Made by a program: the position numbers and the translations under genes
Notes under the pieces: model-generated
The model's input: the letters and a program-made list of their open reading frames with translations, nothing else
The model's database searches: none
What the model was told of the DNA's origin: nothing
IMG/VR virus record: IMGVR_UViG_3300048904_000337
Span: 1-64,000 of that record
Length of the DNA: 64,000 nt
Source of the DNA: a virus
Strand: one strand, 5' to 3'
Shown here: positions 1 through 64,000 of the stretch, piece by piece
Layout of the letters: every line of letters starts with the position of its first letter
Numbering within the stretch: position 1 is the first letter of the stretch

Positions 1-211
1 CAAAATTTAGCTCATATGATTCTTGTTCAGCCAGCGACAATACTTCCCAGCTTGGAACATACATTTCTACAAGCTTGTCGCCACCAAGCTCTACCCATCT
101 ACCATCAACATCTACAGCAATATACGGACGAAGTTTCGATAGGTCGCCTTCCATTTTTGCAAGTAGTTCACGTGCCGCAATAGCTGGAATAAGCTTGAAT
201 TTGAATTGCAT
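1..211 (-). CDS. hypothetical virion-module protein, N-terminal part only (ORF leaves window at position 1)
   Basis: ATG at 209-211, 17 nt after the spike-gene stop. The minus frame stays open to the window edge (MQFKFKLIPAIAARELLAKMEGDLSKLRPY...). Absent from the ORF track because it is truncated. Confidence 0.4.
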   Translation of the reverse strand, partial: MQFKFKLIPAIAARELLAKMEGDLSKLRPYIAVDVDGRWVELGGDKLVEMYVPSWEVLSLAEQESYELNF

Positions 212-228
212 GCCTTGGATTGATTTAA

Positions 229-924
229 TCATTGGAAAGGAGGCACCTGTCCATTATGTGTATGTCCGTAAACAACTGCTCCACCCACAGTGGTAGCCTG
301 CGGCAGTGTGGTAACTGGCCCGGTAACAATAAGATTTTTATCCACTTTCAGATTGCCTGTTATCTCAGTGTCAGGAGCATCAATTGTAACCTTAGTTGGA
401 GCAGTCAGCTTAATTGCTGTGGGCTGAATGCTAATCCGAGTTGCGCCGTCTGTTGACTGAATAACTAACGCTTCTGCGTCTTCTTCATTTATGGTATAAT
501 TGCGCATAACATCCGGTATGAAGATAGCATCACAAAATTTATGAGATGCTCCATCTGAACCAGCCGGCTGATCTTGCAGCGTTTGTAGGAACAACGTGAT
601 ATCACGATCGCAGGCATATATCCAACCAAGATCTCCAGGCTTAATTGGGAAATTGATATGGAAGTTACCTGCACCCATGCTCAGCACTTGAATGTCAGGA
701 ATTGCTTTACGGTTTTGCCGAAGCAAGTCCCCACCAGTTGTCGGCCGTACGGTTGACATAATAGCAGGGCGGACAGTTGCAGTATTTGCCACTCTGTCAT
801 ACGACTCAACAATAGCTGGTAAGCAGCATTCAATATCCATGCTGATGGCACTTTGGATAAAGCGCAGCGTTGAGCTAACTGTTTTTGAGTCTTCTGGCTG
901 AGTAACTAATGGTCCGTTAAGCAT
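229..924 (-). CDS. central baseplate spike, gpV-like
   Basis: ORF track gives 229..1017. I prefer ATG 922-924, which overlaps the upstream stop (ATGCTTAA). The C-terminus ends in YGHTHNG, an HxH motif typical of P2 gpV-type spike tips. Located in the tail module. Confidence 0.5.
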   Translation of the reverse strand: MLNGPLVTQPEDSKTVSSTLRFIQSAISMDIECCLPAIVESYDRVANTATVRPAIMSTVRPTTGGDLLRQNRKAIPDIQVLSMGAGNFHINFPIKPGDLGWIYACDRDITLFLQTLQDQPAGSDGASHKFCDAIFIPDVMRNYTINEEDAEALVIQSTDGATRISIQPTAIKLTAPTKVTIDAPDTEITGNLKVDKNLIVTGPVTTLPQATTVGGAVVYGHTHNGQVPPFQ

Positions 925-1222
925 CGCCCCACCAATACAATTTGTGCAGTCCATTGGCAAAGTTTTGATAAGTAGGGTAACTTGCCCCGTCTTCGCAAAG
1001 CCAGCCAATATTGCCAAACCGCTTATTCTGCGGAGCAGGCATCATGGAAGTGTTAGCGGCAGATAAATGCCCAGAAATTACAGATGTTCCGTCTACAGTA
1101 ACTGTTAACAATGTACTGTTAGACGGGCCCAGCTGAACAGTTATGCCAAACAGCCTTCCACCAAGCAAACAAGCTAGCTCTTGGTTGGGAACAGCTTGTA
1201 GCTGGATTAGATTCATCGTCAT
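917..1222 (-). CDS. hypothetical tail-module protein
   Basis: 101-aa ORF between the tube-like and spike genes. Its stop overlaps the spike start. No motif recognised. Confidence 0.5.
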   Translation of the reverse strand: MTMNLIQLQAVPNQELACLLGGRLFGITVQLGPSNSTLLTVTVDGTSVISGHLSAANTSMMPAPQNKRFGNIGWLCEDGASYPTYQNFANGLHKLYWWGDA

Positions 1223-1326
1223 TTAACTTACCTCGTAAGGCATTATAACGCGAGGCGGACTGGCCAGTAAATAACCAGCAAATAGGAAAGCCCAGGAAAG
1301 CCTGGGCTAAAATGTAGCAACTGCTG

Positions 1327-1788
1327 TTACACGCCCTGGTTGTTGTCGTTACGGTCTTCGAACACGAAGCCAAAGGCTCGCGAGTTCATGCGGCCATCCT
1401 GAGAACCAGACGGTGTAGCTGGACCACTGATAATCATACCGCTAGTGAGCGTAACAGTACGGCCGCTTGGGAACGTTTCAACGATGGTAATAACGTCCAT
1501 TGGGCGAGCACCTTTCTTCTTGCTAATGCGGTTGGCTTCATGCAAGATCGACAGGTTTTGGTCATCAATAGAGCCAGGAACAACTGCGTACTTGGTAGTA
1601 ACAACAGCTGGTTTGCTCCATACAACAAGATCACCGTTAGGGCCCATACCATATGCGGCAGTTTCCAGGTCACCGCTTTCAATAGGCGCCTGGTCATCCG
1701 CGAACATGTTGATAGTGAAACCCTGTGGGAAAGTTACGCTTGCGGTAATCCGTACCGACAAGCCAAACAGGGAAATATTTGTGCTCAT
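1327..1788 (-). CDS. tail tube-like protein, copy 1
   Basis: 153 aa, directly downstream of the sheath-like gene. Clear paralog of 62766..63263 (FPQGFTINMFADDQAPIE vs MPVGFKISQFADDADSIQ; SGMIISGPATPSGSQDGRM vs KGRIISGVASSSATAEGRM). Confidence 0.55.
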   Translation of the reverse strand: MSTNISLFGLSVRITASVTFPQGFTINMFADDQAPIESGDLETAAYGMGPNGDLVVWSKPAVVTTKYAVVPGSIDDQNLSILHEANRISKKKGARPMDVITIVETFPSGRTVTLTSGMIISGPATPSGSQDGRMNSRAFGFVFEDRNDNNQGV

Positions 1789-1806: not shown

Positions 1807-1829
1807 GGTGACCCACAGCGTAGGCCACC
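1807..1829 (-). promoter_or_regulatory. intercistronic RNA hairpin between sheath-like and tube-like genes, carries the ACCCACAG motif
   Basis: Minus-sense GGUGGCC-uacgcugug-GGUCACC. All 7 pairs form in minus-sense RNA (one G-U wobble), whereas the plus sense would have an A-C mismatch. Followed by UUCU and the RBS AGGAGA. Confidence 0.5.
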
Positions 1830-4408: not shown

Positions 4409-4857
4409 TTTGTCTCCCTGTGGGTAATAGTTTGCCCAAGAATTCCATCGCGTACAAGCGGCTTGTCAAAACCTTTTTGAGCAATAGTCGAATCAGCGTT
4501 ACCCTGGAAGTCTCCTTCTTTAAGGGTTTCTTGAATAGTGGCTACCAGCGCTTCGCCTAGCTTTTTCTTGTATGCCTCTACTGTAAGCGTACCATCCAAA
4601 ATTTCTGCCGATCGTCGCTCGATATAACCAGGTAACTTGGCATCGATTTTTGCTGCCGACTGCCGGAGAAGTGGACGGGCAGGTATACCCTTGTGGCCCG
4701 TCTCTGGATTTGGTGTTGTACCAAATTCGTTGGCAATCATTACAGCGGCAACACTTTGGCCTGTTGGGTACGTAGCGTTTTCAAACCAGCCAGCATCAAC
4801 ATTTGAGCCGTCTAGCTGCCTGAGTACGGCTGCGTGCTGGTCAAGTTTTTTGCTCAA
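4405..4857 (-). CDS. HK97 gp10-like head-tail/tail-completion protein
   Basis: 150 aa. The segment VAAVMIANEFGTTPNPETGHKGIPARPLLRQ matches the conserved NEFGT...PARPF core of the HK97 gp10 family as I recall it. Confidence 0.55.
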   Translation of the reverse strand: MSKKLDQHAAVLRQLDGSNVDAGWFENATYPTGQSVAAVMIANEFGTTPNPETGHKGIPARPLLRQSAAKIDAKLPGYIERRSAEILDGTLTVEAYKKKLGEALVATIQETLKEGDFQGNADSTIAQKGFDKPLVRDGILGQTITHRETK

Positions 4858-5297
4858 TGGAAAGTCCCGCCAACTTTTCGAAATGCTGCGCGCTCAGGCA
4901 GACCACCAATGGAGAATCCACCCACAGTGTCAATCTGCAGCATTGTCAGCAGTTGCTGTCCATATGGAGTTTGACCAAGCCACCACTCAAACATATCAGC
5001 AGCAGGTGGAGCAACTCGCGATACCGATACTTTATCAACAGTTGAGCTATTAACAAAACCACCTTGCTTACCTTTTGTGATAGTGGTGGTATGAATCCTC
5101 AATAGGTGTGCGAGCAGCAATTCCATATGCAGCTCAGCACATTCACCACAACCAACTCCGCCACAATCGCCTTCCTCGATCATGCAGACAACTTGGCGCC
5201 AGTACAGATTAAGCAAAGAATCCGGATATTTGGTTTCATTGGCAAACTCTGTAAAGTTTGCGCGGAAGTCATCAATGTTGAGAACAGGCGTGGCCAT
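4854..5297 (-). CDS. head-tail adaptor-like protein (DUF4054-like)
   Basis: 147 aa, the first gene of the connector cluster after the capsid genes. The N-terminal FRANFTEFANET...LLLAHLL pattern resembles that family. Inference. Confidence 0.45.
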   Translation of the reverse strand: MATPVLNIDDFRANFTEFANETKYPDSLLNLYWRQVVCMIEEGDCGGVGCGECAELHMELLLAHLLRIHTTTITKGKQGGFVNSSTVDKVSVSRVAPPAADMFEWWLGQTPYGQQLLTMLQIDTVGGFSIGGLPERAAFRKVGGTFH

Positions 5298-5916: not shown

Positions 5917-7014
5917 TTAGATACCGGAATAGCGGACCACAGCGTAAGGGCGGGTGCACATTACACCAGCAGTGGCGTTTGCAAAGTCTTCGATGTAGCG
6001 CTTTGCCTTCTTCTCGACACCGACAGTCAGGAACTTGCTGACTACCAGTTGCTTGAAGACCATACCGCCGTCAGTCGAACCGTCGATCGAGCTGTCAACT
6101 TCTTCAGCATACAGGTAGAACACGTTCGCGCCAGTAGCTGCAGCGTTCAGCTCTGGAGCCGATTCGATGCGGATACGTTTGTAAGTCTGGGTCAGCCAGT
6201 CGCGAACAGAGATACCCTGCACGGTAACGGTGCTCAGGAAGTCTACCGAACTGGTTGCGATCAGCAGAACCAGGTCGACATTTTCCGGATCGATGTTGTC
6301 CTGCGACTGGGTACGCAGAGCAGCAATTGCAGTCCGGATATCAGACATGATCGCCAAAGCGTCCTTGGTCGACCAGGTGCCACCAGCAACGGAAACGTAG
6401 GCAGGCAGGTTCGGGTCATTCAGCAGACCGAAGGTGCGGTTTGAACCGTTGTACCAGCCGTTGAAGCCGATAGCGTTACGCATGATTTCCAGGCCGATTG
6501 CAGCAGCTTGGCGCTTATGCTCGCCGACGTTCAGGTTCATGGCAGCAGCACGTTGCTCTTCCAGCATGGCGACGGACATACCGTGCTCACCACGAACGAT
6601 GGTGCGACGCTCGAAGTTGGTGTTCAGGCCAGCCAGAGGGATACGGTTGTAGTCGCCATATTCAGTAGCAGAGCTGGCAGGTTCAACAACGCCCTGCACA
6701 ACTTCTTGGTCCTTGAACTCGCCCACAGTGGTGACGCCGATGCACTTGTCGATCTTGCGAGCTGCGGTCAGGATCTGGACGAAACCAGGCAACCACGCCT
6801 GCAGGAACTGGATCGGTGTAGCGATCGAGCCGGTAGTTACCGCAGGGGTGAACGAGGCGTCACCAACTGCCAGAGCACGGACTTGGCGGTGTACAACACC
6901 CGGGTCAATGTTGATGCCGATGCGGCGCAGGGCTTGGACAGCCTGGTCACCGACAACCGTCATGTTGAATGGGCGAACATCACGCGCCCGGATGTGACTG
7001 TGAATTACAGACAT
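5917..7014 (-). CDS. major capsid protein
   Basis: 365 aa. Follows the scaffold and decoration genes and is followed by a strong terminator. Codon usage looks like a highly expressed gene. The family (DUF2184/HK97-fold-like) is inferred. Confidence 0.7.
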   Translation of the reverse strand: MSVIHSHIRARDVRPFNMTVVGDQAVQALRRIGINIDPGVVHRQVRALAVGDASFTPAVTTGSIATPIQFLQAWLPGFVQILTAARKIDKCIGVTTVGEFKDQEVVQGVVEPASSATEYGDYNRIPLAGLNTNFERRTIVRGEHGMSVAMLEEQRAAAMNLNVGEHKRQAAAIGLEIMRNAIGFNGWYNGSNRTFGLLNDPNLPAYVSVAGGTWSTKDALAIMSDIRTAIAALRTQSQDNIDPENVDLVLLIATSSVDFLSTVTVQGISVRDWLTQTYKRIRIESAPELNAAATGANVFYLYAEEVDSSIDGSTDGGMVFKQLVVSKFLTVGVEKKAKRYIEDFANATAGVMCTRPYAVVRYSGI

Positions 7015-7585: not shown

Positions 7586-8923
7586 TTACTTCTGTGGGTT
7601 GAGGTATGCGTCCAGCTCAGAGCTCGACGGAGCGGCACTGTCGCCGACACGTTGTTGTTTTACCGAAGCAACAGCTTTGGCAGTGGCTTTTTCAACGCCG
7701 TCCATATAGGCAGTCAGCGCAACAGCCGAGTCGCCCACGGCACACTTGATGCCCAGCTTTTTGACAGCGTACTCAGCAACTTTGCCGGCAGTCATGGAAG
7801 CGTGATCGAAAGCGCCGGTATGCTTGGATACACGGCTGTAAAGGGCGTCGCGTTCGGCAACGGCCTGGAACATGGAGTCCATGGTCACGGTCGATTTCTC
7901 CGAGTTGGCAATTTGCTCATCATTGTCATTGCCGTCACCGGCCTTGACGTCGGCATTAGTGCCGTCAGTGGAAGCGTCGGTAGATGCGTCAGTTTCTTCG
8001 TCACCGGTAGCAGCAGTGCTACCGCCAAGAACAGCAATCAGCTGTTTCAGCAGAGCAGTGACCTGGTCGTCAGCCGTGCCACCATCGGTTTCTTCATCGC
8101 CGGCTTTTTCTTCCTGGTTTTCACTTTTTCCTGCAGCAGCTGCAGCTTCGGCAGCTTCACGAGCAGCTTTGGCTTCGTCAGTTTCCGCTTCGCCCCCAGC
8201 TTCTGCTTCGCCACCTTCCTGGTGTTCAGGCTCTTTGGCTTCTTCCGCGAGGAATTGCTGGAGCACAGGGATTAGCTCGCGCAGTTTATCAACTGCACCG
8301 TCGCCAATACGTTTCTTTTTCATCTGATCTTCCTCAGAGGTTTGTTGGGAAAAGGCGCTATCTAGCACACGTGCGCCAGGAACTCGTGCCTTGCCGACAA
8401 GAGCGAGGTGATTCCCGCGCATGTCAACTTGTTCTGCCGCAACTTCACCGCCCTCTGTGGGAATGAAGTCACAGACAAAGCCGAGCGAAAGTTCAACTTT
8501 CTTCCCGGACATAATCAAACGAATCATTGTTCGGGAGTAAACAACCAGGTCGGCAACACACCAGCCTGTCTCTTCGTCAAAACGAAGGTTTACCATTACA
8601 CCACAGACGCCCTTCTTGTCCGGGTCTACACCCTCATCGACATCAGGCAGTCCATCACCATCCTGGGTAATGCCTTCAATATAGGTATGGTCGTCAATAA
8701 GTGGAAGGTTTTGGCAAGAGGTAAGGAAAGTCTCATTGCTGATAACCTCCTTAGCCCGCAAAACTTTGACAATCTCGTTTGGATCACCTGGAAGTTGTGC
8801 TTCGCTACGGGCGTAGTCGAAAATGCCGAAAGAGGTAATTGGGCACCCTGTTACATGCAGGAACCCATTCTCGTCAATACGACGAGCGCTTTTCGTTGAA
8901 GCCGCGTCAAAAACAATACGCAT
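7586..8923 (-). CDS. scaffolding / prohead protease-like protein (DUF2213-like)
   Basis: 445 aa. A structured N-terminal domain is followed by a long acidic Glu/Ala-rich low-complexity region (EEAKEPEHQEGGEAEAGGEAETDEAKAAREAAEAAAAAG), typical of scaffolds. Lies directly upstream of the capsid genes. Confidence 0.6.
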   Translation of the reverse strand: MRIVFDAASTKSARRIDENGFLHVTGCPITSFGIFDYARSEAQLPGDPNEIVKVLRAKEVISNETFLTSCQNLPLIDDHTYIEGITQDGDGLPDVDEGVDPDKKGVCGVMVNLRFDEETGWCVADLVVYSRTMIRLIMSGKKVELSLGFVCDFIPTEGGEVAAEQVDMRGNHLALVGKARVPGARVLDSAFSQQTSEEDQMKKKRIGDGAVDKLRELIPVLQQFLAEEAKEPEHQEGGEAEAGGEAETDEAKAAREAAEAAAAAGKSENQEEKAGDEETDGGTADDQVTALLKQLIAVLGGSTAATGDEETDASTDASTDGTNADVKAGDGNDNDEQIANSEKSTVTMDSMFQAVAERDALYSRVSKHTGAFDHASMTAGKVAEYAVKKLGIKCAVGDSAVALTAYMDGVEKATAKAVASVKQQRVGDSAAPSSSELDAYLNPQK

Positions 8924-9190: not shown

Positions 9191-9214
9191 GGTGACCCAC
9201 AGGCGCAGGTCACC
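9191..9214 (-). promoter_or_regulatory. perfect 7-bp hairpin carrying the ACCCACAG motif, just after the endolysin stop
   Basis: GGTGACC-cacaggcgca-GGTCACC. Near-copy of the hairpin at 1807-1829. No T-run follows. Confidence 0.45.
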
Positions 9215-10533: not shown

Positions 10534-11334
10534 TTAGTCGTCCAAAGAAGCTTTTGGACGCATTCGACACCTGCAATTAATAGCATAACCTGGTTTTCCA
10601 AGATCGCCCTTTTTTGCGTTAAACGCTTGGTTAGCATCAGAGCCGTCTGGCCACTTTAATTCTTCTGGTCCGCCTTCAAGGGAGAACTCATGACCATTGC
10701 GAAGCTCATGACACTTACGCGGTGTTTTACCTGCAGAAGAATGGTCCCAAATAAAAGTTTTAATACCGGAATCGAGCATCCGTGCAGTATTGAGACTTGT
10801 AAACAGTTTAGAGTTTTGGTCTCGAGCAATTAGCTTAGCGCGATTGCCAAGCATTTCCTGAAGCTCTGGATAAATTTTGGCCTGGTCCGGGCCGTACTTT
10901 GTGTAGAGAGCAGTGATCTTGTCAGACGTTTCTTTTGCAAGGTTGGTAATAAGCCCAACATTAGCCTCAACTTGCTGCGCCAACAACCCTTCAACTGCTG
11001 GAGCTAAACCCACAGTAAGGTGCTGCTTGCCCAGCTCCTCGATTGCGTCCCAAGTCGTTTTTGCCGAGTGCCGGTTTACCTTCGAGACAAACTTCTTGGC
11101 AATGCTAAACGCTTTTTTACGGAGCAGGTCAAGTCCAGCAAGAGTGATACGGTCTCCAACAAAACCTTTTTTCCGAAGTCCGGGAGCAACTACTTCTTCA
11201 ATGATAAGTTGATGGATTTCACGCTGATACTCAATGGCAACGCCAATCTGTGGGTTGAGCTGCTTGCCAATAATAAAAGTTGGCTTCGGCTTTCGCTCTC
11301 GAGTCTTACGCGCAATAAAGGGCTTTTTGGCCAT
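10534..11334 (-). CDS. minor head / head morphogenesis protein (Mu F / SPP1 gp7-like)
   Basis: 266 aa directly downstream of the portal gene. The C-terminal GKPGYAINCRCRMRP motif is typical of the MuF-like family. Confidence 0.65.
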   Translation of the reverse strand: MAKKPFIARKTRERKPKPTFIIGKQLNPQIGVAIEYQREIHQLIIEEVVAPGLRKKGFVGDRITLAGLDLLRKKAFSIAKKFVSKVNRHSAKTTWDAIEELGKQHLTVGLAPAVEGLLAQQVEANVGLITNLAKETSDKITALYTKYGPDQAKIYPELQEMLGNRAKLIARDQNSKLFTSLNTARMLDSGIKTFIWDHSSAGKTPRKCHELRNGHEFSLEGGPEELKWPDGSDANQAFNAKKGDLGKPGYAINCRCRMRPKASLDD

Positions 11335-14568: not shown

Positions 14569-14581
14569 CCCACAGTGTAAC

Positions 14582-53198: not shown

Positions 53199-53258
53199 CT
53201 TCTACAACCCACAGCGGGTGCGGCTATTATAGCGCATCCGCTTTGCCGTGAGCAAAAT

Positions 53259-54239
53259 ATGGAACTGTTTACCTCGCCTCCACCATTTGGGCTTAAGCCT
53301 AACCTCGCTGCAAAGTACGTAGAAGAGAAGCATAAATTCCCTTGCTACGGTTCTCCAAAAATTGACGGTATCCGAGCGCTCGGAGTTGCCGGTCAATTGC
53401 TTTCCCGTACGCTAAAACCGATTCCTAACCGTTACGTCCAGTCAGTATTTTCCAATTGCTACGGATTGGACGGCGAATTGGTAGTAGGACCTTACAACCA
53501 TCCAAATGTAATGCAAGCCACTACTTCCGGTGTCATGAAAAAATCTGGTGAACCGGACGTTACTTTTTACATTTTTGACCGATGGGACATGCCACGTCAT
53601 ACTTTCGAAGAGCGGCTTGCTTCGCTTCAAGAAGGCTGGGGCCTAACTCGTGCGGCGCCTCGAATTATTGTTCTTGAGCAAGTGCTACTTAATAATCAAG
53701 AAGAACTTGATGCATTCGAAGCCAAGTGCATCCGCAACAACTTCGAAGGCATTATCACTCGCGATCCGAAGCGCAAGTATAAGAATGGGCGATCGACAAC
53801 CAATGAAGGCGGTATGACCAAAGTCAAGCGCTTCAGTCATGGCGAAGGCTTAATCTTTGACTTTGAAGAAATGATGCATAATGACAATGAAGAGTTTGTC
53901 AATGAACTTGGCAATGTCGCTCGCTCATCACACCAGGAAAACATGGTTGGCACTGGAATGCTTGGTGCACTGTGGGTTAGCAACCCTGAGTTCGACAAGC
54001 CATTCAAAATCAGTGCCGGCTCGATGTCTCACCCACAGCGGGTATGGGCCTGGGAAAACCGTGACAAGCTGAAGAATGAAATCTGCCGATTCAGTTGGTT
54101 TAAGCATGGTACCAAAGATGTTCCACGCCATGGTATTTGGGCTGGTTTCCGCCATATGATGGACCTTGGCATTGAGCATCCGCTATACAATGAAAAATTC
54201 GCGAATATTCCAGTGACCCTAGAGTTTCCTTTGGAGTAA
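53259..54239 (+). CDS. ATP-dependent DNA ligase
   Basis: Adenylation motif I SPKIDGIRAL (KxDG), motif III-like FYIFDRW, and motif IV-like FEGIITR. Confidence 0.8.
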   Translation: MELFTSPPPFGLKPNLAAKYVEEKHKFPCYGSPKIDGIRALGVAGQLLSRTLKPIPNRYVQSVFSNCYGLDGELVVGPYNHPNVMQATTSGVMKKSGEPDVTFYIFDRWDMPRHTFEERLASLQEGWGLTRAAPRIIVLEQVLLNNQEELDAFEAKCIRNNFEGIITRDPKRKYKNGRSTTNEGGMTKVKRFSHGEGLIFDFEEMMHNDNEEFVNELGNVARSSHQENMVGTGMLGALWVSNPEFDKPFKISAGSMSHPQRVWAWENRDKLKNEICRFSWFKHGTKDVPRHGIWAGFRHMMDLGIEHPLYNEKFANIPVTLEFPLE

Positions 54240-54578: not shown

Positions 54579-55065
54579 TCTTACACCCGAGCGAATTGCC
54601 AGCGATTCTGAGCACAGCCAGCAAGCTGCGCTGTTTTGCTGGATCCGTCGCAAAGCGCATTATCACCCAGAGTTGGAATGGGCATTTGCAATTCCCAATG
54701 GCGGCCATCGAGACAAGATCACTGCCGGCAAGCTGAAAGCTGAAGGTGTGACTCCTGGTGTCTTCGACCTTTTCATCCCAGTCCCGAAAGGCATCCACTG
54801 TGGGTTATGGATTGAGATGAAAAAGCCAAGCGGCGGAGTAGTGTCCACTGAGCAAAAAAAGTTTGGCAAAGCTATGTGCGACCGCGGCTATTACGCGGTA
54901 GTATGTTATTCATGGGTAGATGCTGTAGCGACTATTGCAGCCTACCTGGAAATCACAACTGAGTATCCGGCTACGCTACCACCTGAGTTTTTAGCAAAGC
55001 TAAAAGCCGAGCGCGAAGCGAAGCGGGCCAACCCTATTCGGCCGAGTCAGAGGACTAAAAAATGA
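54568..55065 (+). CDS. VRR-NUC domain nuclease
   Basis: ORF track gives 54517..55065. ATG 54568 overlaps the upstream end. AIPNGGHRDKITAGKLKAEGVTPGVFDLFIP...LWIEMKKP. Confidence 0.7.
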   Translation: MAGSLTPERIASDSEHSQQAALFCWIRRKAHYHPELEWAFAIPNGGHRDKITAGKLKAEGVTPGVFDLFIPVPKGIHCGLWIEMKKPSGGVVSTEQKKFGKAMCDRGYYAVVCYSWVDAVATIAAYLEITTEYPATLPPEFLAKLKAEREAKRANPIRPSQRTKK

Positions 55066-55412: not shown

Positions 55413-55724
55413 ATGGCTGGCTGCTCAATGGCGCAGCATATTGCGCGTATTGAAAGTGAAGATGGCAAAAAGTTTACTGATATTCTTTTTGAGCTGGCAG
55501 CAAGCGGCGAGAGTAAGTCATCATCTGCCGAAATACTTGATATTCCACAGACTACACTATGTAAGTGGCTAAGGAATAACCCACAGTGCATTGAGTGGCC
55601 AGCCAAAAATTCCAGCAATGGTTTTATGGAAAATGTGAGAAATAGCACGCCCGCAAGGCAGGCTGCAAGACTTATAAATCTAAAACTATCTTGCAATCAT
55701 AAGCTAAAAGAAAGCCGACCATAG
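55413..55724 (+). CDS. helix-turn-helix DNA-binding protein
   Basis: 103 aa. SSAEILDIPQTTLCKWLRN is a classical HTH. Last gene of the rightward unit. Confidence 0.5.
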   Translation: MAGCSMAQHIARIESEDGKKFTDILFELAASGESKSSSAEILDIPQTTLCKWLRNNPQCIEWPAKNSSNGFMENVRNSTPARQAARLINLKLSCNHKLKESRP

Positions 55725-56173: not shown

Positions 56174-57499
56174 TTAGAATCGAATGCACGGAAGTAGTGC
56201 AATGTTTTTGACGCGCACTTCTGTACCAGTACCTGCTACGCCTGTACTGGCACCACTCGTAGTGCCTGGTTGAATTACGTTGCTACCGGACCCAGCTACG
56301 ACAGCAGCAAGAGCGCCATACGGGTGACCGTGTGCCGGCATCTGGTCAGCCTGATAGCTACCAAACACCCGAGATGGGTCGAGGCCTCGAGTGCTATCCC
56401 AGCCTCTGAAATCAACACCGCGGCAGTCCGGGAGATTGAAAGTAGTAGACCCGTCACCAACACCAAAAGGACAAATTGTGACAGTAGTAGTAGAAGTTGC
56501 TGTAGCATTTGCAGATAGCGTAATAGTACTACCGCCAACTGCTGTAACAGTAGTGGCTGCAGGAATACCCGGCCCGCTGATTGGCATGCCAACCCACATG
56601 GAGCTAGGGCTAGCTACGCCTGTAATACTGTTACTGCCGGAGGTAACTGTACCGGCTACCGACGCAGCAATAGTAGCAAATAGCGCAGCATAGGTCGTTC
56701 GTGATACAGCTGTTCCATTCGCCGCCAAATGCGTAGCTGGCGGCGACATAGAGGCAAACCACTCAATTTTTCCTGGCTGTGCAGCAAATGCAGAAGTGGC
56801 CTGCCCAAGCGTCATTAAATGCTGGCTCTTGGTAGCAGTTGCTCCCTGAATAGCTCCACCGCTGCTACTAACAAGGGCCCAACTTGCGCCAAAGCGCATC
56901 AGCATAGTAATTCCGCCGGCAGCAACTTCTCCTCCTTGTAGTGCGATGCCTGCCCCGCCAACTACAGGCAGACTATTAAACGTCATAGGACCTGTGTTTG
57001 TGGCGATTGGGGAAAACTTGGCGATAGTTCCATCAGTGCTCGGAAGAGCTGGGAAGTATGTTGCAGTTTGGGCGTTAGCTGTACCAGCACCAACTGCGTA
57101 GTTAACTTGTACAGAGATAGGTAGCCAGCCTGCTCCACCAGTGTCCGGGTTGTTCGAGTTACCTGCTGTAGTACAAATCCACACCCCACTACCGGATGCC
57201 TGTGGGACAATTGCGCCAACTGGGTAACCACCAATAGCAGTTGCCAGCGTAGCGCTAAAAGTAGGAGTACCAATACCTGTTTGCATTTCACGCAGGGCAG
57301 TAGTAATGTCATTAAGCAGCGAGTTAAACCCTTCTCGAGAAATATTTTTTGCGTTTGGGTCAACACCAAGCTGAAGCTCATAGTCTGGCCCGTAGCCAGC
57401 AGTGTAGCTAACAGAACCATCGATCTGTGAAGCATCTGGAACAGGCGGAGTACGGTCCCCGCTTATCGCAAATGGTGTAGTAAAAAGTTTAGCCGACAT
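56174..57499 (-). CDS. tail fibre with C-terminal phage tail collar domain
   Basis: 441 aa, Gly/Ala/Thr-rich shaft. C-terminal GSTTFNLPDCRGVDFRGW...QADQMPAHGHPY is the collar-domain signature. Confidence 0.75.
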   Translation of the reverse strand: MSAKLFTTPFAISGDRTPPVPDASQIDGSVSYTAGYGPDYELQLGVDPNAKNISREGFNSLLNDITTALREMQTGIGTPTFSATLATAIGGYPVGAIVPQASGSGVWICTTAGNSNNPDTGGAGWLPISVQVNYAVGAGTANAQTATYFPALPSTDGTIAKFSPIATNTGPMTFNSLPVVGGAGIALQGGEVAAGGITMLMRFGASWALVSSSGGAIQGATATKSQHLMTLGQATSAFAAQPGKIEWFASMSPPATHLAANGTAVSRTTYAALFATIAASVAGTVTSGSNSITGVASPSSMWVGMPISGPGIPAATTVTAVGGSTITLSANATATSTTTVTICPFGVGDGSTTFNLPDCRGVDFRGWDSTRGLDPSRVFGSYQADQMPAHGHPYGALAAVVAGSGSNVIQPGTTSGASTGVAGTGTEVRVKNIALLPCIRF

Positions 57500-57503
57500 T
57501 GCT

Positions 57504-58178
57504 TTACTCCGATTGGATAATCGTTTGTACGCCGCTACCTCGCGGCAGATATTCCATCAATGCAGTCTTAAAGTTATTAGACAGCGAAAATGTAAAAATG
57601 TATTTTTGAGTCATTGGCTTAATATTAATCGCGCCTGGCGCAGCATTAAAGTTGCTTGGCGCAAAAAAGTTATTATGGTACTGTCCAAAGCCAAAAGCTG
57701 GAACGCCAAGCCCACCCACAGTCTCTTCGATATAGGCCAAGCCACTATCCGCAAATACGTCAGCCAGCATATAGTTGATATTGCTGACAGTAGTGTTCAT
57801 TGTCTGCGCGTAGTACCGAATACGCAAAAGCTTTCTTGCTTCTTCAAGCTGTAGTGCAGATGCAGCACTTGAGCCATAAAAGTTTGCAGTATCAAAATTA
57901 CTTCGGTTGGCAAAACCGAATGGCCTTGCGTCTGTTACAACACTGCCATAGACAAGTGATACAGGCACGTCAAGTATAAGTGCCCAAACGACTATACCAA
58001 ACAGATTTGCAGTGCGCAGGTTAAAAACAGAAGATTCCCATCCAGCCCAAAATCCCTTCCACTCTTTATCGTACCAGTCCTGTTTAGCCTGGGATAAACC
58101 GACTAAATTAACAGCGAGATCATACTGCCACGTTATGTTTTGAAGCAAGTCAAGCTCGTAGTTAAGCTCTTTATCCAT
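57504..58178 (-). CDS. baseplate wedge protein (DUF2612-like)
   Basis: ORF track gives 57504..58229. ATG 58176-58178 overlaps the stop of the J-like gene. Sits between the J-like gene and the fibre. Confidence 0.5.
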   Translation of the reverse strand: MDKELNYELDLLQNITWQYDLAVNLVGLSQAKQDWYDKEWKGFWAGWESSVFNLRTANLFGIVVWALILDVPVSLVYGSVVTDARPFGFANRSNFDTANFYGSSAASALQLEEARKLLRIRYYAQTMNTTVSNINYMLADVFADSGLAYIEETVGGLGVPAFGFGQYHNNFFAPSNFNAAPGAINIKPMTQKYIFTFSLSNNFKTALMEYLPRGSGVQTIIQSE

Positions 58179-59395
58179 TAGGACACCACAACTGTAATGT
58201 CGCCAGATGCGAGTGTTGCAACTTCCCACAGCGCAATCACAAGTTCATCTGTAGAGTATACTGGAGGGGTAATACCGTCGTAAAAAGCCACTTCCACTTT
58301 TCGAATAAACAAAGATGGCAATTGCGTATTAATTGCCGCAGATATTTCAAATGGACTAATATGTACACCGACTACATAGCCAGGTTCATTAGGCAATTGA
58401 CCATTTGCATACTGCAATACAGCTGTTGGAATTGCAGTAGTGGGATCTATTGAAGATCCAGCTGCCACAGTGATACGTACTACACTCCGCTTTTCAATAG
58501 GGCGGGTAAAAATAACCGGATATGGTTGGCCGCTGATCGGGTCAACAAGGCTTTGGTTGACGATAGTTCCATTGCTACTACCGCCAGTATAAGGAGAACC
58601 AGTCTGCTTGCTTGCCAAAAGAGCAAGACCAATATCTGCGTCGATACCGCCTTGAACACAAATCCAAGTGCTAGACGCTGGCATTATAACCCCATCAATT
58701 GTTGCGCCTATAGAGTTAGGGTTATCCCTGTTTTTTAAAGCCCGAACTCCATCTACTGCAGCCACATTGGAAGCAATCGCAGCTGTTTGGCCTTTACCCA
58801 TCTTGGATAAAAGAGCTACGCGCTTTGCACGAAGCTGCGAATCAGTTTCCTCAAATGAGCCCACAGTGACAGTGGCAGGGGTTGCGTCTACACCAGTCCA
58901 GCCGAAAGTGCCATCTACAATAGTAAAAGACGACAAAGTTGGGCTTAATGGACCGGCATCAATAGCCTGAAAGTCACCAATAGCAGATATAGACGGACCA
59001 ACTTCAGTGTCCATAACTAGCCTGTAATAATTACCATCCGAGTCTGCAATTCGAGAGCCAGATGGCACTACAGTATTAAATGAACCTGACATCGCCACGC
59101 CATCGAGCACGGTAAAAGTTTCACCTGACGCCCAAATATTGTGCAACCCGCAAATAGCCTTAAGAAAAGTGCCAACGCTCACTTGTGGGTTAATCATGTT
59201 AGCAGTTTCAGCAGTGAGTCCTACTACACCACTTCGCGCAGTTGTTTCAATATCAATAAGACGGCCTTGCGGTGTGTCGTCTTCAAGCAGCATAGTTGGG
59301 CCAAATTGCGCAATATACTCTGCCTGGACATCAGCCTTAAGCGTGCTAGTGTCAGGGACAACTACCCCTGTTTCTACAATGTAGTTATACGGCAT
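58178..59395 (-). CDS. baseplate J-like protein
   Basis: ORF track gives 58178..59416. ATG 59393-59395 sits behind the GGAG RBS. 405 aa. The N-terminal pattern and position match the gpJ family. Confidence 0.55.
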   Translation of the reverse strand: MPYNYIVETGVVVPDTSTLKADVQAEYIAQFGPTMLLEDDTPQGRLIDIETTARSGVVGLTAETANMINPQVSVGTFLKAICGLHNIWASGETFTVLDGVAMSGSFNTVVPSGSRIADSDGNYYRLVMDTEVGPSISAIGDFQAIDAGPLSPTLSSFTIVDGTFGWTGVDATPATVTVGSFEETDSQLRAKRVALLSKMGKGQTAAIASNVAAVDGVRALKNRDNPNSIGATIDGVIMPASSTWICVQGGIDADIGLALLASKQTGSPYTGGSSNGTIVNQSLVDPISGQPYPVIFTRPIEKRSVVRITVAAGSSIDPTTAIPTAVLQYANGQLPNEPGYVVGVHISPFEISAAINTQLPSLFIRKVEVAFYDGITPPVYSTDELVIALWEVATLASGDITVVVS

Positions 59396-60428: not shown

Positions 60429-62417
60429 TTAACTCACTACAGGGCTGGCAAATTCCGCAACAGCGTAACGGAGTTCATTTTTGAGATGATCGCCAAAGTC
60501 TTTTGCAACTCCGCTAACATCAGTAGCATTGCTTGTAACTTCAATCTTATCAATCTTAATATCGCCAACACCACCCTTGCCGCCTACACCTGTGGGTTTA
60601 GACTTATTAATCGCGTCAGCTTGGTTGGACATAGCGCCAACAGCTGCTCGATCCATGCTCATAGTACGCTGAGAATTTGGGTTAATAGTTTTTTGCATTT
60701 GGCGAACACGAGCCTCGTATGCTCCACTTGTTTCACCGCGATATCCACCAGCAGAAACACCAGAACCTGCACCAACGTTTGCAGCCCACAGTGCCATTGC
60801 CTGCTCAAGCCCAGTATTTACTAACGCCAAGGTATTGTTTTCAATTTTCTTGGTATATTCGGTTTGGGCCTTTTGGACTTTACCTTGCTCGGTCTCTTGG
60901 TGTAGCTGATTACTCAAGATAGATTTAATATCATCAAGCGTTTTGACATTTGGGTCATTTTTGATAATTTCTGCTGTTTTTGCTTGTGCAGCTGCCAGCT
61001 TTTCAGCACTGACGTCCCTGCCCTCAAACTTGCCACCAGGGGCTAGTTGTGAAGCTGCTGTACCTACTTGGTTGGACATGTCAGTTTGGCGCGCCTTTTC
61101 TTCGGCATCAAACTTGGCTGCAGCTTCTTCTTCAGCCTGTTTACGGATTGCTGCCCGCTTCTCAGGCGTCATATAAATATTTTCTACCCGGGCAGTAGTC
61201 TCTGCAGCATCACCCGCTTTTTTAACGGCATCAGCCTTTTGCTCTTCAAGCGTGCGAGTTTCTGGGCCAAGGCCAACCATATGGAGCAGGCCTGTACCAG
61301 CTTCTACAATCTTGGTCATACCTTCAATCAAGAAGCTGACAAAAGAGCCCCAGGCATCATGCAGTCCGGAAGTTGCTTGAGTCCATTCGTCTACTGCTTT
61401 GCTAAACTCGATAGTTGCTGGTATAGTCTTAGACCGTACCCGCTCATCATTAGCCTTTTGGTGGTTAGTTAGCTTTTGCTCAGTAATAGCAAGTGTTTCT
61501 GAGGCAGTTTGCAGCGTTCGGCGCCGCTCTGACTCCTGGGCAATAGATAACCCCATATCATCGATCTGCGCCTGAGTAGTCGACACAACAGCCTTGACAT
61601 CAGCAAGTGATCGACCAAACAGCTGTACACCTTCAATAAGAGCGCGTTCGCCTTGGTCAGTTTCTTGTAGGGAGCGAAGATACTTATTCTGCTGCTCAAT
61701 TTGCTTTTCAAGGCTAGCGTTTACCTCAACACCAGCCTTTTTCCATAGGTTAGCCTGCTTAATCAACGGATTATTAAAAGCAGAGGCTGGATCACGGGCG
61801 GCTTGACGCTGGGCCGCACGAATCTCTTCACCCTTGCTGTTTACACCTTCAGCAGACTGTGCTACCGACTCATCGCTAAGCCCAATTGCACGGCCGCGGG
61901 ACTGTAGCCGAATAAGCTCACCCTGCGCGAGTCTTGCCGCATATGCGCGTTCGCCGAGCTCAATGGCTTCTTTAGCGCCCTCTCGAGCATCGTCAATTGC
62001 AGCATTAGCTGTTTTAATTGCACCAATTACTGCACCAATGCCTATAGCAGCAACTGCAGCAGCAGGACCAAGCCCGACTATAACTTCACCAAGGCCAGAA
62101 GCTGCACCGCGAATAGCTGTAAGCTTATCAGAAGAAGACGCAACTTCGGTTAGCGACTTACCAAAAGCCTTACCAGCTTTTTCAGTCTTACTAAAGCTTT
62201 CAGCTACATCTTTGTTTGACTTGGCTGCTTCTTTGGCATTTTCTTTAGACTTCTTGGCCTGTATATTTACAGCAGCATCATCCTTTTTACGCTTAGCCTG
62301 CTGCTTATCATGCTTTGCTTCTACCTTGTCTTCCAAGGCAGAAAGTTCTTTAATATTTTTTACAGCTTGGCCAGTATCTGCGCGGTAGCGAAGAAAAAAA
62401 GTATTAAGCAGTGACAT
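60429..62417 (-). CDS. tail tape measure protein
   Basis: 662 aa, Ala/Lys/Glu/Gln-rich and largely helical, with a hydrophobic Gly/Ala segment (GLGPAAAVAAIGIGAVIGAI). Lies between the chaperone and hub genes. Confidence 0.75.
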   Translation of the reverse strand: MSLLNTFFLRYRADTGQAVKNIKELSALEDKVEAKHDKQQAKRKKDDAAVNIQAKKSKENAKEAAKSNKDVAESFSKTEKAGKAFGKSLTEVASSSDKLTAIRGAASGLGEVIVGLGPAAAVAAIGIGAVIGAIKTANAAIDDAREGAKEAIELGERAYAARLAQGELIRLQSRGRAIGLSDESVAQSAEGVNSKGEEIRAAQRQAARDPASAFNNPLIKQANLWKKAGVEVNASLEKQIEQQNKYLRSLQETDQGERALIEGVQLFGRSLADVKAVVSTTQAQIDDMGLSIAQESERRRTLQTASETLAITEQKLTNHQKANDERVRSKTIPATIEFSKAVDEWTQATSGLHDAWGSFVSFLIEGMTKIVEAGTGLLHMVGLGPETRTLEEQKADAVKKAGDAAETTARVENIYMTPEKRAAIRKQAEEEAAAKFDAEEKARQTDMSNQVGTAASQLAPGGKFEGRDVSAEKLAAAQAKTAEIIKNDPNVKTLDDIKSILSNQLHQETEQGKVQKAQTEYTKKIENNTLALVNTGLEQAMALWAANVGAGSGVSAGGYRGETSGAYEARVRQMQKTINPNSQRTMSMDRAAVGAMSNQADAINKSKPTGVGGKGGVGDIKIDKIEVTSNATDVSGVAKDFGDHLKNELRYAVAEFASPVVS

Positions 62418-62769
62418 TTGCTACCGCCTCCTCAAAGAAATCAATTACACCTTCCCACAGCGCATCCGCTAGCGAGGGGCTATTTATCAGCTCTCTAGCC
62501 TGTGGGCAGTTATATTCCAGGAACTTAATCAAGAGTGCTTGTTGTGCGGCTTTCGGAACATGGTTATCAAGCATTGCCTCTGTCGAAAGAGGCACCCAAA
62601 TTTCATCTAAGATATGAACCTGGACATAACCAAAAAACTTAAGCCGATATTCTATCGGCTGGTCAAGTAGGCCAGTAATACCAAGTCCTTTAGTAAACAG
62701 CTCTCGGCCTACTATGGGCGGTAACTTCGGCAGTTTAAACTTTTTACCGCCGCCATCAATAATTTTCAT
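62404..62769 (-). CDS. tail assembly chaperone-like protein
   Basis: 121 aa between the tube paralog and the tape measure. Overlaps both neighbours. Confidence 0.45.
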   Translation of the reverse strand: MKIIDGGGKKFKLPKLPPIVGRELFTKGLGITGLLDQPIEYRLKFFGYVQVHILDEIWVPLSTEAMLDNHVPKAAQQALLIKFLEYNCPQARELINSPSLADALWEGVIDFFEEAVANVTA

Positions 62770-63263
62770 AATATTGCCCCACGAGCTGCGTTAACTACTG
62801 TATTAACAATACTTGCAGTAGACAAGGAATATTGGTCGCCAAATGCAAAGGTATAAATGTTGCCTGGCATACGGCCCTCTGCTGTAGCGGAAGACGACGC
62901 AACGCCGGAAATAATTCTGCCCTTTACAAAAGTTCGTATGCCGCCATTTGGAAAGCTAATTACAACGCTAATACTGTCATGTGCAAGTTTTGATGTAACA
63001 GCTGCACGGTTAGCGTTATAGAGCACAGCCAGAATTTGGTCTTCAGCAGAGTTAGCAATTACTGCAAAACTTACTGTAAGTGGCACAGCAGATGCATAGC
63101 TTACAATTCTGCCATTAAGGTCTAGTACTGCCGTACCTGTCTGCGCCTCATGAATTTGAATGCTATCAGCATCGTCCGCAAATTGGCTGATCTTAAAACC
63201 AACAGGCATGGTCTTGCTTGCAATCATGTAAGCGTAAAGGCCGCTTGTTCCTACATTGTTCAT
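62766..63263 (-). CDS. tail tube-like protein, copy 2
   Basis: 165 aa. Paralog of 1327..1788 (see that entry). Confidence 0.55.
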   Translation of the reverse strand: MNNVGTSGLYAYMIASKTMPVGFKISQFADDADSIQIHEAQTGTAVLDLNGRIVSYASAVPLTVSFAVIANSAEDQILAVLYNANRAAVTSKLAHDSISVVISFPNGGIRTFVKGRIISGVASSSATAEGRMPGNIYTFAFGDQYSLSTASIVNTVVNAARGAIL

Positions 63264-63264
63264 T

Positions 63265-63891
63265 TTATGCTCCAGGAACTGTCATTCGCGCCTTAACGCT
63301 AATCTCATCAGCGCCAGAAACTGTTTGCGGCCGTTGTAGACCTGCTTTTTGCCGATCGGCATAACGAGCAAGTTCGACATTAGACGGATCTGACATTTTA
63401 GAAGTGGCTGCAGTCTTTTGGATATACTCATGAAAGCCGAGCGTAATCTGCAGCGCATCATAAATGCCTGGGTCACGCTGAATAGGCAGGCTAGACAGCA
63501 GCATATCTGGGTACATGATATCGTCTACTTGCAGCATCACCAGCGTGTTACTGTAGTAGAGCTGTCCAAGCTCAGAATAAAACTGTGACAAAAGGCCGGA
63601 CTCAACAAGCAGTATTACGCTAGCCGTTCTCGGCTCAAATACAACGTTGTCCTGTAGTGACTTGTTAGTTTCCAGCGGGTGGCTTGCTACAGCTTTTGTC
63701 AGTTGGACTTCAATGTCCATAATACCGACGCCGTTGAAAATAGACGACACTGCGCGGTTTAGGTAAATGCCATGGCGTGGCGCTGTAGAAAAGAAATCTT
63801 CGATTGCGCCAGTTACACTATCGAATATTCCCTTTGCAGTTGCCGCCAGGCCCTTAGCAGCCGAAGTAATACCCGAAACAAACTCAAACAT
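63265..63891 (-). CDS. hypothetical tail-module protein
   Basis: 208-aa ORF. Its ATG overlaps the upstream stop (ATGTTTGA). Confidence 0.5.
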   Translation of the reverse strand: MFEFVSGITSAAKGLAATAKGIFDSVTGAIEDFFSTAPRHGIYLNRAVSSIFNGVGIMDIEVQLTKAVASHPLETNKSLQDNVVFEPRTASVILLVESGLLSQFYSELGQLYYSNTLVMLQVDDIMYPDMLLSSLPIQRDPGIYDALQITLGFHEYIQKTAATSKMSDPSNVELARYADRQKAGLQRPQTVSGADEISVKARMTVPGA

Positions 63892-64000
63892 TTTGGTTGT
63901 TCCCTGTTATAACAATGCCATACTCAGTCACGGTGCCGGTAACAAAACTGAGCTCGCCTTCTGTGGGTATACTCATTTTAATACCGGCAACAGATACAAC
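63884..64000 (-). CDS. hypothetical protein, C-terminal 38 codons only (ORF enters from beyond the right edge)
   Basis: The minus frame is open from the window edge to TGA 63884-63886 (...VSVAGIKMSIPTEGELSFVTGTVTEYGIVITGNNQNV). Confidence 0.35.
   Translation of the reverse strand, partial: VVSVAGIKMSIPTEGELSFVTGTVTEYGIVITGNNQNV

Follow-up and report, generated by a model that had tools for sequence, protein, structure and literature searches.

The window analyzed here, the whole 64,000-nucleotide stretch from IMG/VR virus record IMGVR_UViG_3300048904_000337, is almost the entire genome of an uncultured tailed phage, and our subject is the heptamer CCCACAG, which recurs throughout it on both strands. 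The same proteins are encoded on a 64,915-bp Logan contig (SRR35925489_217776), the ends of which overlap by ~30 bases at window positions 39693 to 39722. It follows from this overlap that the assembly is circular and that the window is a rotated copy of it, and ~0.9 kb of the genome lies outside the window. The structural genes resemble those of myoviruses of the PB1/BcepF1/MyoSmar/JSF39 type, at no more than 53% identity. [quoted passage not shown] We detected no integrase among the phage genes, and the phage appears to be virulent, with replication genes of its own. It has GGAG ribosome-binding sites and a GC content of 47%, and we found no close relative among isolated phages.

An earlier sequence-only reading of the window had proposed that the octamer ACCCACAG/CTGTGGGT is roughly 20-fold over-represented on both strands. 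The enrichment proved to be stronger than that: we counted 43 copies (26 on the plus strand and 17 on the minus strand), whereas dinucleotide-preserving shuffles gave a mean of 1.8 and a maximum of 6. The 42 positions listed at that time were almost exact, except that 53217 should read 53207 and that a copy at 23035 had been missed. The true unit is the heptamer CCCACAG rather than the octamer. It occurs in 66 exact copies (35 plus, 31 minus), whereas 4.3 to 6.7 are expected under Markov models of orders 0 to 3, the background correction that the sequence-only reading had called for. There are 23 heptamer sites without the full octamer, not 21, since those at 417 and 21587 had escaped notice; two others had been misplaced, at 50550 instead of 50540 and at 57210 instead of 57200. 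CCCACAG and its extensions rank first among all 7-mers and 8-mers of the window, with a z score of ~30 as against ~7 for the next unrelated word.

The core is strict. Its 21 one-mismatch variants together have 100 copies versus 117 expected, and none of them is enriched. Outside full sites, the sub-words of the motif are depleted (CCACAG, 12 copies versus 25 expected; CACAG, at 0.64 of expectation). On the 5′ side, a pyrimidine is preferred at position −2, and an A immediately precedes the core in 43 of the 66 sites. The bias of the 3′ flank noted earlier is real, in that the core is followed by T (30 sites), C (20), or G (12) and rarely by A, and then by G in 36 sites. With its flanks, the motif thus reads Y-W-A-CCCACAG-T-G, and the ten copies of CCCACAGTGG counted previously are all present. 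The sites, with strand, sequence context, and location, are as follows.

284..290 (+) CCCACAG site, ccaCCCACAGtg, inside gene
417..423 (−) CCCACAG site, cagCCCACAGca, inside gene
1723..1729 (−) CCCACAG site, tttCCCACAGgg, inside gene
1812..1818 (+) CCCACAG site, tgaCCCACAGcg, non-coding or gene edge
4418..4424 (−) CCCACAG site, ttaCCCACAGgg, inside gene
4921..4927 (+) CCCACAG site, ccaCCCACAGtg, inside gene
6722..6728 (+) CCCACAG site, tcgCCCACAGtg, inside gene
7592..7598 (−) CCCACAG site, caaCCCACAGaa, inside gene
8455..8461 (−) CCCACAG site, attCCCACAGag, inside gene
9196..9202 (+) CCCACAG site, tgaCCCACAGgc, non-coding or gene edge
11009..11015 (+) CCCACAG site, aaaCCCACAGta, inside gene
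11248..11254 (−) CCCACAG site, caaCCCACAGat, inside gene
11585..11591 (+) CCCACAG site, tgaCCCACAGgt, inside gene
12574..12580 (−) CCCACAG site, cgaCCCACAGtg, inside gene
13013..13019 (+) CCCACAG site, tcaCCCACAGca, inside gene
14445..14451 (−) CCCACAG site, tgtCCCACAGcg, non-coding or gene edge
14569..14575 (+) CCCACAG site, tgaCCCACAGtg, non-coding, beside terminator-like hairpin
15020..15026 (−) CCCACAG site, tctCCCACAGct, inside gene
16442..16448 (+) CCCACAG site, taaCCCACAGta, inside gene
16971..16977 (−) CCCACAG site, gcaCCCACAGtg, inside gene
18441..18447 (−) CCCACAG site, aaaCCCACAGta, inside gene
18778..18784 (+) CCCACAG site, taaCCCACAGta, inside gene
20106..20112 (+) CCCACAG site, tgaCCCACAGca, inside gene
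21587..21593 (−) CCCACAG site, cttCCCACAGct, non-coding or gene edge
22756..22762 (+) CCCACAG site, ctaCCCACAGtg, inside gene
23035..23041 (−) CCCACAG site, aaaCCCACAGct, inside gene, octamer copy
24264..24270 (+) CCCACAG site, tcaCCCACAGtg, inside gene
25114..25120 (−) CCCACAG site, tacCCCACAGgg, inside gene
25942..25948 (−) CCCACAG site, aaaCCCACAGtc, inside gene
26768..26774 (+) CCCACAG site, tcaCCCACAGtg, non-coding or gene edge
29577..29583 (+) CCCACAG site, tgaCCCACAGtc, inside gene
29815..29821 (+) CCCACAG site, aagCCCACAGcg, inside gene
32640..32646 (+) CCCACAG site, caaCCCACAGcg, non-coding, loop side of hairpin
32833..32839 (−) CCCACAG site, gctCCCACAGca, inside gene
34030..34036 (+) CCCACAG site, tagCCCACAGtg, non-coding, beside terminator-like hairpin
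35052..35058 (+) CCCACAG site, left edge of origin-like intergenic region
35833..35839 (−) CCCACAG site, right edge of origin-like intergenic region
36904..36910 (−) CCCACAG site, caaCCCACAGcg, inside gene
37339..37345 (+) CCCACAG site, cgaCCCACAGgt, inside gene
38645..38651 (−) CCCACAG site, tgcCCCACAGga, inside gene
41824..41830 (−) CCCACAG site, tgaCCCACAGtg, inside gene
42440..42446 (+) CCCACAG site, tgaCCCACAGcg, inside gene
43516..43522 (+) CCCACAG site, agaCCCACAGcc, inside gene
44800..44806 (+) CCCACAG site, tgaCCCACAGca, inside gene
45125..45131 (−) CCCACAG site, cagCCCACAGtt, inside gene
46067..46073 (−) CCCACAG site, taaCCCACAGtg, inside gene
48004..48010 (−) CCCACAG site, catCCCACAGtg, inside gene
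48367..48373 (+) CCCACAG site, ttaCCCACAGga, inside gene
49525..49531 (−) CCCACAG site, tagCCCACAGtc, inside gene
49808..49814 (+) CCCACAG site, cagCCCACAGtg, inside gene
50540..50546 (+) CCCACAG site, tgcCCCACAGga, inside gene
51352..51358 (−) CCCACAG site, tgaCCCACAGcg, inside gene
53208..53214 (+) CCCACAG site, caaCCCACAGcg, non-coding, beside hairpin
53970..53976 (−) CCCACAG site, taaCCCACAGtg, inside gene
54032..54038 (+) CCCACAG site, tcaCCCACAGcg, inside gene
54798..54804 (−) CCCACAG site, taaCCCACAGtg, inside gene
55580..55586 (+) CCCACAG site, taaCCCACAGtg, inside gene
57200..57206 (−) CCCACAG site, tgtCCCACAGgc, inside gene
57715..57721 (+) CCCACAG site, ccaCCCACAGtc, inside gene
58225..58231 (+) CCCACAG site, cttCCCACAGcg, inside gene
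58860..58866 (+) CCCACAG site, gagCCCACAGtg, inside gene
60590..60596 (−) CCCACAG site, aaaCCCACAGgt, inside gene
60785..60791 (+) CCCACAG site, cagCCCACAGtg, inside gene
62454..62460 (+) CCCACAG site, cttCCCACAGcg, inside gene
62500..62506 (−) CCCACAG site, ctgCCCACAGgc, inside gene
63961..63967 (−) CCCACAG site, ataCCCACAGaa, non-coding or gene edge

The sites are spread over the whole genome, and 54 of them lie inside genes, with all six reading frames represented and with 30 sites co-oriented and 36 anti-oriented relative to transcription. Synonymous-codon shuffling within genes, which kept the proteins and the codon usage intact, left 21.9 ± 2.8 sites (maximum, 32), a figure that includes at least 12 unshuffled non-coding ones, whereas 66 are observed. 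The ~10 coding sites that survive shuffling exceed naive expectation because the encoded peptides (T-V-G, x-P-Q, and T-H-S) recur. Codon or dipeptide bias therefore does not account for the enrichment, and, as had been argued from the mixture of reading frames, selection acts on the DNA and not on the proteins. The distribution also led us to reject a clustered iteron or operator array, and a dispersed repeat or mobile element was rejected in turn because the flanks are unrelated beyond ~3 bases.

By our gene calls, which are rough, the window is 92% coding and ~8% non-coding, so that the 12 of 66 sites that are non-coding or at gene edges amount to a mild excess in non-coding DNA. It had been suggested that sites are associated with terminator hairpins. 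Non-coding sites do adjoin hairpins, but these sites are single copies, the hairpins are unrelated, no inverted motif pairs form terminators, and we could assign the motif no common structural role. The known Chi, DNA uptake sequence (DUS), uptake signal sequence (USS), KOPS, and HIP1 words are absent from the window or at background and were rejected as the identity of the motif. A literature search for the word itself returned unrelated eukaryotic papers only. The first impression that the motif is unlike any described one thus stands: no phage motif described to date combines these features, as far as we know, and none surfaced in targeted literature searches.

To follow the motif beyond the window, we used relatives found through their terminase, polymerase, and primase genes, namely, three contigs from IMG/VR plus Logan contigs of three further sequencing runs (clade source samples, SRR35925489, SRR9616339, SRR14611556, SRR26541656, and IMG 3300048919, 3300034127, and 3300013286). 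CCCACAG is enriched in every clade relative found, at 0.5 to 1.2 sites per kb and with the same flank preferences, over a range of primase identity from 97% down to 40%; its absence from related phages, which would have told against the motif, was not what we saw. In DNA ~82 to 87% identical to the window, 29 of 38 window sites are conserved, a fraction to be compared with the 0.26 to 0.37 expected for a neutral heptamer. In DNA ~70 to 72% identical, 11 of 23 are conserved versus an expected fraction of ~0.1, although two of the contigs are near duplicates. Sites are also gained and lost among relatives. The sites are thus under purifying selection with turnover.

The motif is not a trait of the whole structural lineage, since Vibrio phage JSF39, Serratia phage MyoSmar, Pseudomonas phage tabernarius, and a related contig from a metagenome-assembled genome (MAG) carry only 0 to 2 copies; nor did we find a comparable dispersed word in any of these four. 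Scans of viral and metagenome collections with a profile of the primase gave no new relatives. On a 7.7-kb phage contig that encodes a remote homologue of the primase-helicase (L026; ENA ERZ27267796 k141_194076), ACCAGGT/ACCTGGT appears 11 times at 300 to 5500, over several genes, versus 1.8 expected. This may be a different dispersed word of a sister lineage, although the contig is only 7.7 kb long.

The spacing of the sites is a new, previously unreported property of the motif, in that it is regular on each strand independently. Same-strand spacing in the window is more regular than random placement would give (coefficient of variation [CV], 0.53 on the plus strand [P < 1e-4] and 0.57 on the minus strand [P = 8e-4]), and the per-strand CVs of the relatives are 0.14/0.30, 0.19/0.26, 0.39/0.45, 0.51/0.26, 0.46/0.44, and 0.50/0.45. 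Contig 3300034127_000032, which we pieced together, has twelve consecutive same-strand gaps of 2.4 to 3.9 kb. When same-strand gaps were pooled (n = 112), the median was 2.1 kb and the 5 to 95% range was 0.7 to 4.5 kb, and just 0.9% of gaps were shorter than 500 bp, compared with 20% expected. The density on each strand is one site per 1.8 to 2.1 kb. Sites on opposite strands, on the other hand, can lie 46 to 133 bp apart. Under a circular-shift null, the combined CV of 0.71, the alternation of plus and minus sites, and the distances to the nearest opposite site are those of two independent regular series.

Because the strands ignore each other while each is regular, the constraint must act per orientation, and the reader must be specific for strand or direction. 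If the reader bound duplex DNA without regard to orientation, the constraint would fall on all sites taken together, so the spacing argues against an uptake receptor or a nucleoid protein and narrows the mechanism to a strand-tracking reader. CCCACAG is thus a strand-specific signal held by selection at about one site per 2 kb per strand. Per-strand regularity of this kind is a clean computational signature with which phage genomes could be screened for signals of strand-tracking enzymes.

Three features of the replication region bear on what such a reader might be.

34991..35932 (no strand) divergent origin-like intergenic region with an AT-rich stretch and iteron-like repeats
36647..39121 (+) gene for an 824-aa NrS-1-like primase-polymerase (PrimPol) with helix-bundle and helicase parts, the candidate motif reader
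50088..52082 (+) gene for the family A DNA polymerase, which would extend primers in the model proposed below

The region at 34991 to 35932 is likely to be the replication origin. It lies upstream of the primase operon, is packed between 35100 and 35800 with (T/C)GCAGCA(A) iteron-like repeats (TGCAGCA at 35.1 to 35.8 kb), and is AT rich at ~35290 to 35350. It is bracketed by an inward-pointing pair of motif sites at 35052 (+) and 35833 (−). This inverted pair had been pointed out from the window alone, and the pattern is conserved in relatives L017 (8247+/8836−) and L023 (2791+/3505−), so that the flanking pair is kept in three lineages although the iterons differ; the repeat words of the relatives are GTGGCCGCG in L017, CGCAGCA in L023, and AACATGCA in L024. 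An iteron-like cluster of GGTAACAG is present at 40.4 to 40.8 kb of Vibrio phage JSF39.

The gene adjoining this region encodes the largest protein of the phage, which has no Pfam match and no match in isolated phages; a search of 5.8 billion proteins yielded 5 homologues, and one of 1.84 billion representatives yielded 14. Its predicted layout is an archaeo-eukaryotic primase (AEP)-type primase-polymerase at residues ~1 to 200, a helix-bundle domain (HBD) at ~210 to 300, and a P-loop, DUF3987-like helicase part with a Walker A motif (LANSGRGKS) near residue 405. In hidden Markov model searches, distant members of the family matched the Pfam NrS-1 HBD (PF22763; E value, 1e-30) and the Prim-Pol PF09250 or DUF3987 domains. 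Alignment of residues 6 to 307 with PrimPol+HBD proteins by hhalign gave a probability of 98.4% (E value, 9e-15), and in the alignment to NrS-1 from the PDB, the catalytic DxD, sGxGxH, and GxY..TG motifs line up. The one confident part of the AlphaFold (AF2) model is a helical bundle at residues 211 to 300. These profile, domain, and helical-bundle data led us to assign the protein a three-part makeup of AEP PrimPol, helix-bundle domain, and P-loop helicase, and so the phage is predicted to carry a rare, clade-specific PrimPol-helicase fusion.

Members of this family have described template words. ORF904 of plasmid pRN1 primes only at 5′-GTG-3′, with the initiating ATP placed opposite the first base 5′ of GTG (PMC2965215), and NrS-1 PrimPol is most efficient at 5′-GTGG-3′, where synthesis begins at the base immediately 5′ of the word (PMC8718748). 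The G-rich strand of the motif reads 5′-C-T-GTGG-G-3′, that is, GTGG preceded by a T, and by simple arithmetic, the probability that a random heptamer holds TGTGG on either strand is ~0.006. The motif therefore bears a resemblance to the family template word together with its 5′ initiation base. Of the functions offered by the sequence-only reading, we favor the last, a site for a phage protein, and we put the probability that the CCCACAG sites are start sites for the phage's own primase at roughly 40%.

We infer that the 824-aa protein reads the heptamer and that primers start there, as follows. The single-stranded form bearing the motif, as it would be presented to the primase, is 5′-CACTGTGGGTWR-3′. 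The helix-bundle domain would bind GTGG(G) in this template; the chain would open with an A opposite T, and a G opposite C would come second. Primer positions 3 and 4 would come from the preferred flank (T and then G on the C-rich strand), giving a primer that begins 5′-AGTG, and this primer, 5′-AG(T)G..., would be handed to the family A polymerase. The gene at 49129 to 50091, upstream of that of the polymerase, matches a processivity-factor family. Chance alone would give a 7-base word only about one occurrence per 16 kb of each strand, far too few to sustain discontinuous synthesis, and selection would therefore have planted sites on the two strands at distances suited to Okazaki fragments. 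The lagging-strand template could be either strand, during theta, rolling-circle, or recombination-driven replication. A need for sites at Okazaki distance on each lagging-strand template would explain the enrichment, the regularity on each strand, the lack of redundant neighbors, and the selection with turnover. Okazaki fragments measure 1.5 to 2 kb in Escherichia coli and 1 to 6 kb in T7 (PMC8599759), and the range of same-strand gaps is comparable to these reported sizes. At the likely origin, primers from 35052 (+) would run rightward and those from 35833 (−) leftward, inward across the origin-like region, which is the geometry that launching two leading strands would need.

The nearest known systems resemble this scheme in part. 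Like the candidate reader, pRN1 ORF904 (GTG) and NrS-1 PrimPol [5′-GTG(A/G)-3′, 5′-TTTGGTTA-3′] have the PrimPol and helix-bundle domains, which are homologous to those of the phage protein but are here fused to a helicase, and they respond to a strand-specific signal; they differ in that 3 to 4 bases suffice and that no genome-wide enrichment or spacing has been described, whereas here a strict 7-mer is enriched 10- to 15-fold and evenly spaced. The T7 gene 4 protein is also a phage primase-helicase fusion that starts Okazaki fragments at template words (5′-GTC-3′; GGGTC, TGGTC, or GTGTC, with primers pppACCC, ACCA, and ACAC). It is, however, of the DnaG/Toprim type with a zinc finger rather than an AEP, and its sites are short, with no known selection on spacing. 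In the model proposed here, the CCCAC part would be recognized and not copied. ACCCACAG begins with ACCC, the favored T7 primer, perhaps by coincidence.

Several observations weigh against priming as the function of the sites. There is no bias of site orientation around the putative origin (20 plus and 16 minus to its left, 15 and 15 to its right), and the GC skew carries no clear signal of replication for or against the scheme. A simple model with a fixed origin and priming of the lagging strand only would waste half of the sites. Given the lack of orientation bias, forks would have to cross every region both ways, by rolling-circle or recombination-dependent replication, which the presence of a recombination module makes plausible. 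To our knowledge, known PrimPols require just 3 to 4 bases, and a strict need for 7 would be unprecedented; in the genome of NrS-1, that phage's own 8-base site is not enriched, with one copy present. The assignment of the protein has weak points as well: a profile search of the PDB returned only NrS-1 primase chains, and these weakly (E value, ~1), and the AF2 model is poor overall, with a pLDDT of 43, too poor for a fold search. Contigs L024 and L025, which encode a distant homologue of the primase, have clustered iterons only and no dispersed motif. Finally, the link between protein and motif is a correlation within one clade that a shared host would explain equally well, and the reader may be host encoded, such as RecBCD or AddAB.

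If the sites are primase start sites, they would represent a new way for a virus to organize its DNA replication. Why most trinucleotide primase sites are ignored and what sets the length of Okazaki fragments are open questions (PMC8599759). Primases are usually described as trinucleotide dependent, and a selected, evenly spaced start word would offer a natural system in which the start sites are written in the sequence. The strictest form of the idea, an obligatory private priming code in which the PrimPol-helicase starts DNA chains at 5′-CTGTGGG-3′ only, is doubtful in our estimation. Were it true, the genome sequence would fix the start and length of each Okazaki fragment, and priming would be confined to phage DNA, with host DNA offering a site about once per 16 kb per strand, a self/non-self device in replication.

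The rival that survives best, which we nevertheless consider rather unlikely, is that CTGTGGG(T) is a Chi-like signal, read by a host nuclease-helicase of the RecBCD/AddAB type or by one of the phage as it tracks from a double-strand end. Recognition would switch degradation to recombination, and coverage in both orientations would protect or repair DNA from any end. A strict, orientation-dependent word of 7 to 8 bases is typical of Chi; the G/T-rich strand shares CTG...GG with E. coli Chi, GCTGGTGG; and the independence of the two strands would suit an orientation-dependent reader. There is also precedent, since Chi is the commonest octamer of phages LLS and P1, at one per 1.86 to 1.9 kb, and also of Pseudomonas phage MD8 (PMC12315714), a density equaled on each strand of the window, and Chi words are undetermined for most Proteobacteria (bioRxiv 10.1101/2020.08.13.249359). 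The resemblance to Chi-type octamers raised by the sequence-only reading is therefore still alive, but it is not the explanation that we favor. No known Chi is matched: GCTGGTGG has 3 copies in the window, other Chi words are at background, and CTGTGGG is two core positions off E. coli Chi.

Placement also differs. Same-strand sites in the window avoid each other, whereas Chi sites are clustered and mostly in one orientation: in our controls, MD8 had a CV of 1.39, with 32 of 32 sites on one strand, and the first 50 kb of P1 had per-strand CVs of 1.27 and 0.99 and a combined CV of 1.9, while LLS has 20 of 23 sites in one orientation, with terminal clustering (PMC12315714). Chi is recognized only some of the time, so clusters should help, yet there are none here. 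Chi-rich phages typically have no recombination module of their own (PMC12315714), whereas this phage has Sak4-like, SSB, and exonuclease genes. The Cas4-like exonuclease and the SF2 helicase could form a private nuclease-helicase, but a Chi private to the phage and read by these two proteins strikes us as improbable. If the motif is a new Chi after all, it would reveal the word of an uncharacterized helicase-nuclease, and this would be the first Chi-rich phage with regular placement on two strands.

Another strand-specific phage function, such as a site-specific nick of the T5 kind, a base modified on one strand, or a place where another tracking enzyme loads or pauses, is unlikely but would be consistent with the strict core and its one-turn flank preference, with the per-strand regularity, and with conservation across the clade. 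Candidates would be found among the uncharacterized clade-specific proteins, which include a DUF7173 protein, a DUF3268 protein, a DksA/TraR-type zinc finger protein, and a 173-aa protein beside the origin. No DNA methyltransferase or modification enzyme is present among the recorded Pfam matches of the called genes. The nicks of T5-like phages are short, sequence-defined, strand-specific marks, but they fall on one strand only and at a short word that is not enriched, and here we found no conserved nickase candidate. A nicking site was among the functions offered by the sequence-only reading, but the two HNH/endonuclease VII-like genes are not universal in the clade and are missing at the L023 locus, where the motif reaches full density; we rejected them as readers. 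We know of no nicking or modification system that needs an enriched, evenly spaced site.

We judge it very unlikely that the phage carries, passively or by drive, the DNA uptake sequence of a naturally competent host; that resemblance had been drawn from density, strand distribution, and hairpins. The density of about one site per kb on both strands is similar to those of USS and DUS. Like DUS of Neisseria and USS of the Pasteurellaceae, the sites occur within genes as well as outside them, slightly in excess in non-coding DNA, and combine a strict core with weaker flanks. USS have been reported to be evenly spaced (Karlin et al., as cited in PMC1939737). Uptake receptors ignore orientation, however (PMC1939737), and an orientation-blind reader predicts regularity of the combined sites, whereas here regularity is per strand and opposite sites come as close as 46 bp. 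None of eight known DUS and USS words occurs in the window, which also lacks the inverted-pair terminators seen with DUS and USS. An apparently virulent phage would gain nothing from uptake, and the sites are under purifying selection in the phage itself. An artefact of composition, codon usage, or repeats without function, to which the recurring peptides could contribute only in part, can be dismissed in view of the excess over both kinds of shuffle, the six frames, the unrelated flanks, the conservation, and the regular spacing. What confidence these readings leave over belongs to something that we have not considered.

The two HNH/endonuclease VII-like genes (phrog_1035) are paralogous and are inserted in the replication block at 39491 to 40054 and 44015 to 44560. 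Their presence and position vary between relatives, as those of homing endonucleases would, and neither gene holds CCCACAG. A tRNA-Met gene at 40880 to 40957 provides the sole nucleotide match to an isolated phage (93.6%; Pseudomonas phage Medea1, where it is unannotated). In Vibrio phage JSF39 (L013 and L019; PV834959.1), CAATGAAC occurs genome-wide, 29 times versus 2.9 expected. Many of these copies overlap start codons (A-ATG-AAC), and so this word probably belongs to the context of translation starts instead of being a counterpart of the motif.

A single scan of a genome collection with the tail fibre turned up just one remote phage-like contig, which belongs to an Enterobacterales MAG. 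A helicase that shares a 90%-identity cluster with the helicase of the window (WP_347220239.1) is encoded on a 3.2-kb contig (L020; GCA_030152205.1, JASLHK010000367.1) of a "Chryseobacterium sp." MAG; this contig is probably mis-binned phage DNA and gives no clue to the host. The palindrome TGATCA is strongly avoided in the window (2 copies versus ~21 expected), although GATC is common, at 147 per strand, a pattern suggesting that a BclI-like restriction system of the host exerts pressure. The most enriched 8-mer unrelated to the motif is AAACCCGC/GCGGGTTT, with 11 copies versus 1.6 expected across the whole window (for example, at 33997 to 34016), and at least one copy forms a terminator stem (AACCCGCTTCGGCGGGTTTT). 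Lastly, among early or accessory genes at 27453 to 29270, a 605-aa protein with a BNR_4 domain has as its only phage matches a Klebsiella phage tail spike and human-gut phage fragments (~30% identity), and on the basis of these matches, it may be a depolymerase or receptor-binding protein.

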